From positions 26,989-90,988 of the forward strand of contig DIIC01000043.1 in the NCBI GenBank assembly GCA_002420425.1: a stretch of DNA of 64,000 nt, written 5' to 3'. The notes under the pieces were generated by a model. The model made no database searches. It saw only the letters and a program-made list of their open reading frames with translations, and was not told where the DNA came from. Below, in pieces: positions 6,795 to 14,221 of the stretch (the stretch's first letter is position 1; every line of letters begins with the position of its first letter). Source of the stretch: Proteobacteria bacterium UBA5680. Its GTDB lineage: Bacteria > Pseudomonadota > Gammaproteobacteria > Arenicellales > UBA5680. Made by a program: the position numbers and the translations under genes.

Positions 6795-7463
6795 TTATTT
6801 GCTTTCCTCTAATGCCAAAAGGAGATCCTGCCAGGCTTTTCGTTTCTCCCCTGGTGAACGAAGAAGATAAGCAGGATGGTAAGTGACAACAAGAGGAACA
6901 GAGGAATCACCATAATGGTGGACATGACCACGCAACTGGCTAATCGGCAAATTGGTTTCCAATAGCGCCTGTGCAGCAAAACGACCCATTGCAATAATGA
7001 TTTTTGGCTTTATAAGGGCAATCTGATGAAAAAGAAAAGGCAGACACCGGGTAACTTCTTCTCCCATCGGGTCTCGATTTCCAGGTGGACGGCATTTAAG
7101 AACATTGGCGATATAGACCTCGTTGCGCTCAAAACCGATTGCCAACAACATAGCATCGAGCAGTTTGCCTGCTCTGCCAACAAACGGAAGACCCAGTCTG
7201 TCTTCCTCCGCTCCGGGCGCCTCACCGACAAAAAGCCAATCGGCACTCTTGTCACCTACTCCAAAAACAGGCTGTTTCCGATTGGTGTTGAGCGGACACT
7301 GGAGACAGGAGAGAACCTGGTTTTCAAGGCTCCCCCATTCGCTCTCTTCCGATTGAGGCAATCTTTGGCCCTCTGTGTGATCAACCGGCGAGAGGTGGCG
7401 TTCGCTCCAACTCTGGATACCCATTCTTTGAAGGTAGAGTTGTCGACGTTGACTCAGGTTCAT
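6795..7463 (-). CDS. uracil-DNA glycosylase, family 4
   Basis: Motifs GEAPGAEEDRLGLPFVGRAGKLL and HPAYLLR. Its ATG overlaps the leuA stop by 1 nt (TAATG). Confidence 0.85.
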   Translation of the reverse strand: MNLSQRRQLYLQRMGIQSWSERHLSPVDHTEGQRLPQSEESEWGSLENQVLSCLQCPLNTNRKQPVFGVGDKSADWLFVGEAPGAEEDRLGLPFVGRAGKLLDAMLLAIGFERNEVYIANVLKCRPPGNRDPMGEEVTRCLPFLFHQIALIKPKIIIAMGRFAAQALLETNLPISQLRGHVHHYGDSSVPLVVTYHPAYLLRSPGEKRKAWQDLLLALEESK

Positions 7464-9010
7464 TAAATCAGGGTATCCGTCTGTGGGTGACGACGGTCAT
7501 TGATGTCAACAAGCCGATTAAGCCCATTGAGGTAGGCCTTCGCAGATGCGATAACAATGTCCGTATCGGCCCCATGTCCATTGACAAAACGGCCATCCTG
7601 TTCAAGCCGCACCGAGACCTCGCCCTGGGCATCTGTACCGCTGGTGATGGCATTGACCGAGTAGAGCTGAAGATGGCACTCTATATCAACCATCTGATCT
7701 ATCGCTTTAAATGCCGCATCGACAGGCCCACTTCCAGTCGCCTTGGCAGAATGCTCCACTCCAGCTATTGATATAGTCAGCTCTGCACGAGGTGTCTCAC
7801 CCGTCTGAGAGGAGAATTCCATCGCCACCAGTTTGAGTGACTCAGTCGTCTTGCTGCTGCTTACATCAGAGACCAGCGCCTGAAGATCCTCATCAAAAAT
7901 CTCATGCTTCTTGTCAGCGAGGACTTTAAAACGAGAAAACGCCTTATTCAGACTCTCCTCTGTTTTGAATTCATGCCCGAGATCAAGCAATCGCTGACGA
8001 AATGCATTCCTACCGGAGTGTTTTCCCAACACCATTCGGTTAGCGCTCCAGCCCACATCCTCAGCACGCATAATTTCATACGTCTCCCTCTTCTTGATCA
8101 CCCCATCCTGATGAATACCAGACTCATGGGCAAAAGCATTTGCACCTACGATAGCCTTGTTGGGCTGAACCGGAAAACCTGTTACCGAGGCAACAAGTCG
8201 ACTCGCGGGTACGATTTGGGTGGCATCAAGACAAGTATCACAAGAAAAAAGATCACGACGGGTACGGACTGCCATCACCACCTCTTCAAGAGAGGCATTG
8301 CCTGCACGCTCGCCCAACCCATTAATCGTGCATTCAACCTGCCGAGCTCCTGCTCTTACTGCAGCCAGTGAATTGGCTACGGCAAGGCCAAGATCATTGT
8401 GACAATGAACAGACCAGACTGCTTTATCAGCATTAGGAACTCGGTTAATAAGGGTTTCAATCAAGGCGCCGAACTGTTCCGGAACATTGTAACCGACGGT
8501 ATCCGGGATATTGACTGTTGTCGCTCCCGCTTTGATAACTGCTTCTATGATTCTACAAAGGAAATCAGGCTCGGAACGCCCGGCATCTTCAGGAGAAAAT
8601 TCCACATCATCGGTATATTGACATGCGTGCTTTACTGCCCAGACAGCCTGTTCAATGACCTGATCAGGCTCCATTCTCAGCTTCTCTTTCATATGAACGG
8701 GAGAAGTGGCGATAAAAGTATGAATTCGACCTGAGCGAGCAGGCTTTATGGCCTCTGCGACGCTATCGATGTCTCCCTCAACAGCACGGGCAAGGCCTGC
8801 AATGGTGCTCTCGGTTATCGACTCGGCAATATCCTTAACGGCGGAGAAATCACCAGGGCTGGCCGCAGGAAATCCGGCTTCAATAATATCCACCTTCATT
8901 TTCTCAAGCACTTTGGCAATCCTAATTTTTTCTTCAGGGGTCATCGAAGCGCCGGGGCTCTGCTCACCATCTCGTAGTGTGGTATCAAAAATAATCAATT
9001 GGTCATTCAT
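7463..9010 (-). CDS. leuA: 2-isopropylmalate synthase
   Basis: Motifs [27 protein letters not shown] and HESGIHQDG, plus a C-terminal LeuA regulatory domain. Confidence 0.95.
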
Positions 9011-9026
9011 GGTCTTCTTCCTGCAT

Positions 9027-9077
9027 AGAAAAGATAAAGTATCCTCTTACCTCCATCTTGTTGTCATGGAGAGAGGG
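9027..9077 (-). terminator. candidate attenuator hairpin plus U-tract in the leuA leader
   Basis: Minus-sense CCUCU-CUCCAU-gacaacaag-AUGGAG-gua-AGAGG is followed by AUACUUUAUCUUUUCU. It lies between the leader-ORF stop and the leuA ATG. The stem is AT/GC mixed and carries a 3-nt bulge, so its strength is uncertain. Confidence 0.35.
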
Positions 9078-9103
9078 ATAAAACTAAAGATATGGGAATG
9101 AAA

Positions 9104-9205
9104 TTATAGCGCCAGACGGCGCAGCAGGAGCAGAAGAGTATGCAGGGTCAGCCCCCGACCAGTGGTTGGAGTATTGAGAAGTTTCTGTTCAGATTGGCAG
9201 CTCAT
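9104..9205 (-). CDS. Leu-rich leader peptide upstream of leuA (33 aa)
   Basis: ATG 9205..9203 to TAA 9106..9104 translates to MSCQSEQKLLNTPTTGRGLTLHTLLLLLRRLAL. Eleven of the 33 residues are Leu, including five consecutive Leu codons (CTT CTG CTC CTG CTG). It is shorter than the ORF-track cutoff. The SD is weak. Confidence 0.6.
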   Translation of the reverse strand: MSCQSEQKLLNTPTTGRGLTLHTLLLLLRRLAL

Positions 9206-9251
9206 GCGCTTGAGCTTAGGCAAGCCCGCTTCAGGAGTCAAGGGCAAGTGA

Positions 9252-10019
9252 CTACTCTTCCTTCGCCCGATTTGCTCTTGTTTTCCTGATACCGAGAAGC
9301 GTTACAGCTGGTCCCGAGGCCAAATAGCCAAAAGAGAGCATAAAAAGAACAACCGGAGGATCAAATGAGATCAACATAAATACGAAGACAAGTACGATAA
9401 GGGCCATAAAAGGAACCTTTCCCCTGGCATCAAACTCCTTAAAACTGCGATATCTCAGATTACTCACCATTGCCAGGCCTGAAGAAACAGTCAGGACGAG
9501 TGCAAACCACCCCATTGTCTTGTCACTCCAATCTATATCGGTACCAAGCCAAACGAAAGTGGCGATTACAGCGGCGGCGGCTGGACAGGGCAGCCCCTGA
9601 AAATAGCGTTTGTCTTTTGCCGGTTGCACATTAAACCGGGCGAGGCGCAATGCCGTTGTTGAGACATAGAGAAAAGCACAGAGCCAGCCAATCTTGCCAA
9701 AGCCAAAGAGGGCCCACTGATAAACCACCAGTGCCGGAGTCAAACCAAATGCAACCACATCCGCCAGGCTGTCATACTCTTTTCCAAAATCACTCGCAGT
9801 ATTGGTCAATCTGGCAACCCGCCCATCCAGACCATCCATGACGAGGGCGATAAGAATGGCAATTGCGGCTACCGAAAAATCTCCATGAATAGCCCGGATG
9901 ACCGCATAGAAAGCGGCAAACAGCGTTGCAGTGGTGAACAGGTTGGGAAGAATATAGATTCCCCGCCGTCGGCCCTTTTTCTGGCCGACCGGAGTTTCTG
10001 GATTGGGTGGCATAGTCAT
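9252..10019 (-). CDS. pssA: CDP-diacylglycerol--serine O-phosphatidyltransferase
   Basis: CDP-alcohol phosphatidyltransferase motif DGLDGRVARLTNTASDFGKEYDSLADVV in a polytopic protein. Confidence 0.9.
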   Translation of the reverse strand: MTMPPNPETPVGQKKGRRRGIYILPNLFTTATLFAAFYAVIRAIHGDFSVAAIAILIALVMDGLDGRVARLTNTASDFGKEYDSLADVVAFGLTPALVVYQWALFGFGKIGWLCAFLYVSTTALRLARFNVQPAKDKRYFQGLPCPAAAAVIATFVWLGTDIDWSDKTMGWFALVLTVSSGLAMVSNLRYRSFKEFDARGKVPFMALIVLVFVFMLISFDPPVVLFMLSFGYLASGPAVTLLGIRKTRANRAKEE

Positions 10020-14084: not shown

Positions 14085-14157
14085 AGATTTTTACCTCTTG
14101 ATCGTTTCTTCCACCGCCCTCTTCGGGACTGATGAAACGAGTAAAAAATGGCGATGT

Positions 14158-14186
14158 AGTATAAACATCGGAGAGGTGTGTGGCAA
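14158..14186 (-). promoter_or_regulatory. candidate sigma70 promoter for ilvIH-ilvC
   Basis: Minus-sense TTGCCA-17 nt-TATACT, with the -35 at 14186..14181 and the -10 at 14163..14158. It lies about 75 nt upstream of the ilvI GTG. I found no leader ORF here. Confidence 0.35.
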
Positions 14187-14221
14187 AGTGCAATCAGGCC
14201 CAAATTCTGATCAAATCCAGC

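Follow-up and report, generated by a model that had tools for sequence, protein, structure and literature searches.

A leucine-rich, apparently leaderless upstream open reading frame precedes a lone leuA in an Arenicellales bacterium and its relatives

What does a short leucine-rich open reading frame (ORF) do in front of a leuA gene that stands alone? The question is raised by a 64-kb stretch of DNA (64,000 nucleotides, hereafter the window) from Proteobacteria bacterium UBA5680 (Gammaproteobacteria, Arenicellales; contig DIIC01000043.1), in which leuA (7463-9010, minus strand; 2-isopropylmalate synthase, NCBIfam NF002087, 894 bits) follows a 241-nt spacer (9011-9251) that begins after the pssA stop codon (9254-9252) and ends before the leuA ATG at 9010. 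On the minus strand this spacer holds an ORF of 33 codons plus TAA (ATG at 9205, TAA at 9106-9104; feature 9104-9205) whose product, MSCQSEQKLLNTPTTGRGLTLHTLLLLLRRLAL, contains 11 Leu; five of its Leu codons, CUU CUG CUC CUG CUG, are consecutive (9136-9122) and form the proposed sensing site. A sequence-only reading of this DNA had pointed out the spacer, the ORF and the Leu run, all of which are where it placed them, and had explained them by leucine attenuation with the logic of enterobacterial leuL. The first half of that explanation stands: the ORF is very probably a Leu-sensing leader that controls leuA, and Leu-rich ORFs of this kind recur in 38 of 78 related loci. The second half is poorly supported, given the inverted pairing, the loss of a stem in a sister lineage and the outcome of an Rfam scan, and we propose that the output is more probably a masked translation start.

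Chance seldom produces such an ORF from this spacer: among 5000 dinucleotide shuffles, 11 contain an ORF, from ATG to stop, with five or more Leu in a row. Nowhere else in the window, on either strand, does a small ORF have four or more successive Leu towards its end, and no second copy of the element was found within these 64 kb. We collected 80 genomic loci whose LeuA is 70-77% identical to that of the window; 78 of them extend at least 300 nt upstream of leuA. A Leu-tail ORF (ATG start, 10-70 codons, at least 4 Leu in 6 within the last 12 residues) occurs on the leuA strand in 38 of these 78 loci, compared with 1 of 78 on the reverse complement, 1 in the coding control and about 1.1 in resampled sequence. 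Tails enriched to the same degree in Arg, which follows the run in many of them, are found in 7 loci, and those enriched in any other residue in 0-2. The tails end in ...LLLRR*, ...LLLRLLP* or ...LLLLLP*, the nearest to the window being ...LLRRLAH*. Their carriers belong to Gammaproteobacteria (Arenicellales, Acidiferrobacterales, 'Muproteobacteria', Chromatiales, Methylococcales, Methylophaga) and Betaproteobacteria (Rhodocyclaceae, Aromatoleum, Azoarcus, Sulfuricella). With metagenome loci added, the family comprises 81 loci. Their leaders use 266 CUG, 64 CUC, 39 CUU, 35 CUA, 37 UUG and 30 UUA codons for Leu, with CUN in GC-rich genomes and UUR dominant in AT-rich ones such as L079; that Leu is kept through differing codons suggests that selection acts on translation and not on an RNA motif. 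In the window, the codons of the Leu run are those common in leuA. No Leu-tail ORF was found within 300 nt upstream of leuA, even with GTG and TTG starts allowed, in the Chromatiaceae loci L043, L048, L050, L052, L053, L055 and L057 and in about 30 others, which either regulate leuA in another way or carry the leader farther upstream.

At closer range, a search of 5.8 billion proteins gave 79% identity for the nearest other LeuA; the relatives from the genome scan have LeuA at most 77% identical, and the metagenome scan returned one identical contig and otherwise PssA at most 64% identical. The 127.9-kb JGI contig L081 has a spacer identical to that of the window. Useful variants came from the window's own 90% LeuA cluster alone, the commonest member of which is represented by 168 contigs, with Tara among the listed sources. 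Two of these variants (L165, L169) differ from the window by a few single-nucleotide polymorphisms, and three (L166-L168) form a sister lineage with LeuA 94% identical and fourfold sites of leuA 54% identical, so that unconstrained DNA should be near saturation. Against this background, the window and L166 agree at 29/29 positions from the -35 to the -10 box including the 17-nt spacer, at 15/15 in the Leu run, including its 5 synonymous sites, and at 17/17 in the leuA start region GCAGGAAGAAGACCAUG. Identity is 16/18 in the U-rich tract upstream of that region and 47/69 in leader codons 1-23; a hairpin in the leader-to-leuA spacer, H2 below, matches at 10/11 in its 5' arm, 8/14 in its 3' arm and 5/9 in its loop. 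The L166 leader ORF likewise has 33 codons (MVIHSAQKQITSATTGRELDPHSLLLLLRCLAH), its first 23 diverged and its Leu run kept. The sole variant in the Leu run is a synonymous CUC to CUU change in L165 and L169, which retains pairing to the leuA Shine-Dalgarno (SD) region as a G.U pair. Within the diverged N-terminal part, codons 13-19 (9148-9167, minus strand), AACCACUGGUCGGGGGCUG, are near-invariant in L166; they could fold into a small hairpin (CGGGG/CCCUG in the window, CGGG/CCCG in L166) and contain a UGGUC complementary to GACCA at the leuA start codon.

The leader ORF seems to be leaderless, with its ATG at or beside the transcription start, because the -10 box lies just before the ATG and an SD sequence is absent. 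A -35 box TTGACT (9236-9241, minus strand) is followed after 17 nt by a -10 box TAAGCT (9213-9218, minus strand), which ends 7 nt before the leader ATG in the window and 6 nt before it in L166. This promoter was read from the sequence; a promoter scan did not list it because TAAGCT fits TATAAT at 3 of 6 positions only. Of the 60 family loci with a good sigma-70 match, 29 have the end of the best one 6-7 nt upstream of the leader ATG, where about 2 of 60 would be expected randomly, and 40 have it 6-11 nt upstream. None of the 81 leader ATGs is preceded by an SD-like 4-mer, compared with 69 of the 81 leuA ATGs, and the mean anti-SD duplex energies are -0.6 and -5.7 kcal/mol, respectively. L166 has lost 1 nt between the -10 box and the ATG, a deletion that leaves the spacing at 6-7 nt and throws the upstream TTG codons out of frame; since the 33-codon ORF from the ATG is retained, the ATG is the conserved start. 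The whole promoter (window 9213-9241, minus strand), its 17-nt spacer CCTGAAGCGGGCTTGCC included, is invariant between lineages of 54% neutral identity, and conservation of this degree in the spacer suggests an extra constraint, for example a putative regulator binding site.

Other ORFs of the spacer were set aside. The extensions of the leader ORF to 47 and 45 residues from TTG codons begin inside the promoter and are out of frame in L166. The 45-residue form is the one that the JGI gene caller placed on L165 (970-1107), as a hypothetical protein that amounts to the leader ORF extended to a TTG inside the -35 box; the statement that the ORF is too short for ORF callers thus holds only in part, as in one assembly it was called, from the wrong start. 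On the plus strand, an antisense ORF at 9140-9289 is absent in L166 and one at 9009-9101 is not conserved there, and a 7-codon ORF from 9026 that overlaps the leuA start is broken in L166 by a 1-nt deletion.

A constant structure of the leader RNA lies over the end of the ORF. Hairpin P1 (GCGCC-GUCU-GGCGC; 9122-9109, minus strand; -8.4 kcal/mol) covers the last leader codons, as the sequence-only reading had described, and a GC hairpin is found at or over the leader stop codon in all 81 loci, with stems UGCGCC/GGCGCA, UGCCC/GGGCA, UGCCGC/GCGGCA and others, and loops mostly of 4 nt. Its mean energy is -8.4 kcal/mol, compared with -2.1 for shuffles, -3.6 for a segment 45 nt upstream and -2.0 inside leuA. 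The stems show GC/CG swaps, and dealing the 3' arms among the sequences lowers pairing from 0.96 to 0.58, the first four pairs being paired by construction as each hairpin was chosen as the best of its segment. The 5' arm starts with an invariant UGC across the 81 loci, and in L166 a C to U change leaves a G.U pair, so that pairing is kept. P1 may serve as a pause or '1:2-like' hairpin, or stack on a long-range helix (see below). As a terminator it was rejected: the terminator scan lists it, but non-U sequence follows in most relatives.

The RNA beyond the leader stop, which lies 5 nt past P1 in the window, is C-rich and G-poor (9077-9103, minus strand) and is a candidate for Rho loading. Its first 50 nt contain 14 C and 4 G, a skew unmatched in any 50-nt segment of leuA, and in 50 of the 81 loci the excess of C over G after the stop is reached by fewer than 5% of such leuA segments. 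The conservation of this tract suggests a contribution from Rho.

Many family leaders end in Pro-stop with the stop codon in the P1 loop (e.g. L006, L027, L028, L073). Pro before a stop codon is a slow-termination context in E. coli, and a ribosome lingering at the stop of a ...LLP* leader could cover P1 together with the first part of the C-rich tract.

How could the leader act on leuA? In minimum free energy folds, the Leu run pairs with the leuA start. The 5' strand of this long-range helix, UCUUCU-gc-UCCUGC (9124-9137, minus strand), meets GCAGGA-AGAAGA at 9024-9013, within the leuA translation initiation region GCAGGAAGAAGACCAUG (9008-9024, minus strand). Every fold of the window RNA contains this helix, with pair probabilities of 0.89-1.0; the duplex is worth about -17.1 to -17.3 kcal/mol, and nowhere in the leader transcript does the leuA start region have a better partner than the Leu run. 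P1 stands one nucleotide past the helix, and inside the helix loop lies hairpin H2, CCUCUCUCCAU-(9 nt)-AUGGAG-gua-AGAGG (9076-9043, minus strand; -12.3 kcal/mol). The six inner pairs of H2 have probabilities of 0.96-0.99 and are conserved, the five lower ones have 0.36-0.66 and are lost in L166, so that predicted stability and conservation match. The probability that the SD and AUG of leuA are unpaired is 0.15 in the free RNA and rises to 0.39-0.45 when a ribosome footprint covers the Leu run; it stays at 0.15-0.17 when the mask lies over the 5' end or stands for a ribosome on the stop codon. On these folding predictions, SD masking may be the main output in the window, a reading to which we give slightly less than an even chance.

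The proposed sequence of events is as follows. The spacer's own promoter (TTGACT-17-TAAGCT) would start a leuA mRNA that begins with the leaderless 33-codon ORF, and ribosomes on this leader would report the supply of charged tRNA-Leu at the five Leu codons near its 3' end. In naked RNA, 9137-9124 is predicted to pair with the leuA SD and start (9024-9013), closing a three-way junction with P1 and H2 and blocking leuA translation. With Leu plentiful, a ribosome would reach the UAA and depart, and the helix would re-form and leave leuA untranslated; udg4 and rimI would likewise be off if co-expressed with leuA, and the untranslated C-rich RNA would perhaps also be shortened by Rho. With Leu scarce, a ribosome parked on the Leu run would free the SD, and leuA would be translated. 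On transcripts reading through from pssA the leader AUG is internal and has no SD, so leuA would presumably stay masked there. Such a ribosome-mediated translational attenuation, similar to that proposed for the actinobacterial LEU element and possibly reinforced by Rho, has in our estimate an even chance of being the mechanism.

Several observations weigh against SD masking. Partners of equal quality 70-140 nt upstream are found for 8% of the SD-containing AUG contexts in the window, and CUN Leu codons resemble anti-SD sequence by their nature. In the family as a whole, a Leu run pairs with the leuA start of its own locus no better than in non-cognate combinations matched for GC (mean difference -0.16 kcal/mol, p=0.84); a weak coevolution signal of p=0.009, then 0.04, was present before GC matching and is gone after it. 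Nor did the tract after the stop codon show any coevolution with the leuA start region family-wide. The SD opens clearly upon stalling in about 12-15 of the 81 loci (among them L001, L014, L038, L047, L051, L054, L059, L119 and L135), and the comparison of stalled with control masks gives p=0.09 for the family. No compensatory change was seen in the close relatives alone available for this comparison, in which both helix strands are invariant, and the conservation of the leuA start and of Leu codons has other possible causes. Finally, masking of the SD alone does not account for P1, for the C-rich tract or for the conserved U-rich tract. In other family members the SD is sequestered by the C-rich tract (L007 and L093) or terminator-like hairpins are present (L009 and L086), so that the sensor, a leaderless Leu ORF with P1, looks conserved while the output varies by lineage.

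The sequence-only reading had cast H2 and the U-rich run as an intrinsic terminator and a duplex between the Leu run and the 3' arm of H2 as the alternative structure, which is transcription attenuation of the classical leuL type. The parts of this device are there. H2 is predicted to form, UACUUUAU (5 U in 8) and more U come 1-2 nt behind it, and its 3' arm could instead pair with the Leu run at -11.9 kcal/mol. The U-rich tract AUACUUUAUCUUUUCUAU (9025-9042, minus strand), which lies between H2 and the leuA SD, is well kept in L166, its U-rich run reaches to 9027 and stops 17 nt short of the leuA ATG, as had been stated, and better terminators occur in a few relatives (again L009 and L086). 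The mutually exclusive pairing that was to link these parts fails, however, because its logic is inverted: the antiterminator strand is the Leu run itself and would lie under the stalled ribosome, so that stalling would block antitermination when Leu is scarce and leave read-through to times of plenty, the wrong way round, and in the minimum free energy fold the partner of the Leu run is the leuA SD region instead. In the folds inspected we found no other antiterminator for H2, no partner for a freed P1 3' arm and no segment released by stalling that could pair with the H2 5' arm. H2 has no U directly after its stem and was not called by the terminator scan of the window. Relatives bear out the Leu run and the inner stem of H2 but not its lower stem (CCUCU:AGAGG), which has a low pair probability in the window and is lost in L166, where AGAGG has become GUAAA through four 3'-arm changes with no compensating 5'-arm change; what remains is a six-pair stem about 12 nt from the U-rich tract. 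Relatives with a window-like leader have a hairpin at the H2 position, of unrelated sequence. A lenient terminator test, which asks of the RNA from the leader stop to leuA for a hairpin at least as stable as -8 kcal/mol and then for 5 or more U in 8 nt, is passed by 20 of the 81 loci, several of the passing hairpins being P1, and an Rfam 15 scan of 8800-9500 with E up to 10 returned two chance matches to unrelated families and none to Leu_leader (RF00512). We therefore hold leuL-type attenuation to be improbable here. The U-rich tract may enhance translation or may be the tail of a weak terminator. By inspection of the folds, a pseudoknot through the H2 loop also seems unlikely, as the loop is poorly conserved in L166 and has no complement in single-stranded parts.

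Rho might instead be the main agent, loading on the C-rich RNA past the leader stop and ending transcription before or early in leuA, with stalling protecting the transcript indirectly, either because an opened leuA start admits a ribosome that shields the RNA or by a fold that we did not find. The C-over-G tract follows the stop hairpin family-wide, with a hairpin that varies in sequence as the only other recurrent downstream element; few of the loci have terminator-like sites; and Rho-linked attenuation by upstream ORFs (uORFs) is documented elsewhere, in tnaC and mgtA and, to judge from the title of a bioRxiv paper, in M. tuberculosis. However, no structure was found that hides the C-rich tract specifically upon stalling, the freed P1 3' arm lacking a good downstream partner; Rho by itself would not discriminate Leu, so that the SD switch would still be needed; and the C-richness may simply reflect the H2 5' strand and anti-SD-like sequence. 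As the main output, Rho-dependent attenuation is unlikely. Least probable is that a protein or other factor binds the conserved RNA (P1, the C-rich tract, H2) and that the Leu codons are not the sensor. The ubiquity of P1 with its invariant UGC and the complete conservation of the promoter spacer would fit a bound factor, and in PMC1262725 a protein was the preferred agent at the LEU element, Leu-codon mutations in Streptomyces having given non-classical results. Yet the leaders strongly keep the residue Leu while its codons change, and they keep it in a frame that always opens with an ATG where transcription is predicted to start; this speaks for translation, and no candidate protein is linked to the locus.

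The nearest known system, in addition to being a model for SD masking, is the actinobacterial leuA leader, its resemblance to the window probably being convergent. In both (Corynebacterium cg4015, PMC4046766, is a further actinobacterial example) an ORF with a Leu run directly precedes a lone leuA, and both lack a typical intrinsic terminator. For the LEU element a compact fold has been predicted whose base stem joins the Leu codons to the leuA SD (PMC1262725, Seliverstov et al. 2005), a pairing much like that predicted here, with the high pair probabilities, the background of equal partners and the lack of family-wide coevolution reported above. The leader leuL1 of Streptomyces lividans is leaderless by RNA-seq and has no typical terminator (PMC8079986), whereas that of the window is called leaderless from promoter position and SD absence. 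The window comes from another phylum, however (Gammaproteobacteria, Arenicellales), and shows no detectable sequence similarity to the actinobacterial leaders; it has, by inspection, two separate hairpins, P1 and H2, where the LEU element has a conserved pseudoknot inside the base stem, 33 codons where Streptomyces leaders have 12-15, and a longer leader-to-leuA spacer (93 nt).

Enterobacterial leuL (RF00512) shares with the window a short uORF with a Leu run that reports, or in the window would report, charged tRNA-Leu to control leuA, and P1, over the end of the ORF, is analogous to the leuL 1:2 hairpin. It differs in its strong terminator/antiterminator pair, of which the window has no convincing counterpart, and in controlling leuABCD rather than a lone leuA followed by udg4-rimI. 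The leuL ORF is led by an SD and uses four rare CUA/CUC codons; the window ORF has no SD, its Leu codons are common in leuA, and it does not match the leuL covariance model. Leu-rich leader peptides have been predicted upstream of other proteobacterial leu genes, namely Shewanella leuA (PMC2659441) and Campylobacter LeuL (PMC3847290), and a passage of PMC13434334 refers to Lopatovskaya 2010 for Leu-rich leaders in Proteobacteria. Like the window, these have ORFs of 20-35 residues with several C-terminal Leu; they differ in being described with ribosome-binding sites and terminators. In the literature searched, no leaderless, terminator-less proteobacterial leuA leader is described, the surveys Vitreschak 2004 and Lopatovskaya 2010, which may list lone-leuA leaders of this type from beta- or gammaproteobacteria, lying outside that search.

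We built a model, R1, from 13 family members including the window, which scores 84 bits against it, a match by construction. R1 recovers loci outside its training set, both close (L165, L166) and more distant (L001, L004, L005, L007, L008, L092, L093, L096), and a scan of 18 related loci against Rfam gave no match at the gathering score. These results are consistent with a widespread, uncatalogued family of leaderless Leu-sensing uORFs in Gamma- and Betaproteobacteria (Arenicellales, Acidiferrobacterales, Chromatiales, Methylococcales, Rhodocyclales and others) that would control a lone leuA without an intrinsic terminator, through masking of the ribosome-binding site and/or Rho, an interpretation that we put forward tentatively.

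The leader is in all likelihood real and functional. Its concept is ordinary, Leu leader-peptide attenuation being textbook matter and a Leu leader at leuA therefore unsurprising; its architecture is a variant uncatalogued in Rfam. The interest lies in the form, that is, in a leader ORF that would be translated from the extreme 5' end of an mRNA in Proteobacteria, where leaderless translation is regarded as rare, and in an output that is apparently SD masking or Rho and not a terminator. The architecture (promoter at the ATG, C-terminal Leu run, stop hairpin, C-rich tract) is common to many uncultured marine and sediment lineages, and the cultured carriers Aromatoleum, Azoarcus and Methylobacter would permit experiments. 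If the reading is right, it would provide a new cis-regulatory family for Rfam and annotation pipelines, and a convergent counterpart of the actinobacterial LEU element with a conserved stop-codon hairpin of its own, hence a second, independent system for testing how that element works.

A large subgroup of the family (L001, L003, L011, L012, L014, L016, L022, L029, L033, L034, L038, L049) carries a strongly conserved motif, CCUGGCGAGGA(N3-9)AUACGC, about 15-45 nt past the leader stop and downstream of the stop-codon hairpin; it is absent from the window. Among the ...LLP* leaders, GGCGAGGAG has complementarity to the Leu codons CUCCUCCUGCC and may thus serve as a 'region 2'.

Around the leader, NCBIfam profiles give the gene order cysS-ilvI-ilvH-ilvC-psd-pssA-leader-leuA-udg4-rimI, in agreement with the ilvIHC-psd-pssA-leuA-udg-rimI string, with leuA alone in it, of the sequence-only reading. 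The cysS-ilvI spacer (14085-14221, minus strand) contains the best sigma-70 match of the first 20 kb, TTGCCA-17-TATACT at 14186-14158, preceding ilvI. Because this spacer holds no ATG-started upstream ORF and no leader rich in branched-chain residues, ilvIHC seems not to be under leader-peptide control in the source organism. On the other side, the first base of udg4 (6795-7463, minus strand) is the last base of the leuA stop codon (7463) and rimI begins 16 nt past udg4, so that the family-4 uracil-DNA glycosylase and RimI would share the Leu control of leuA.

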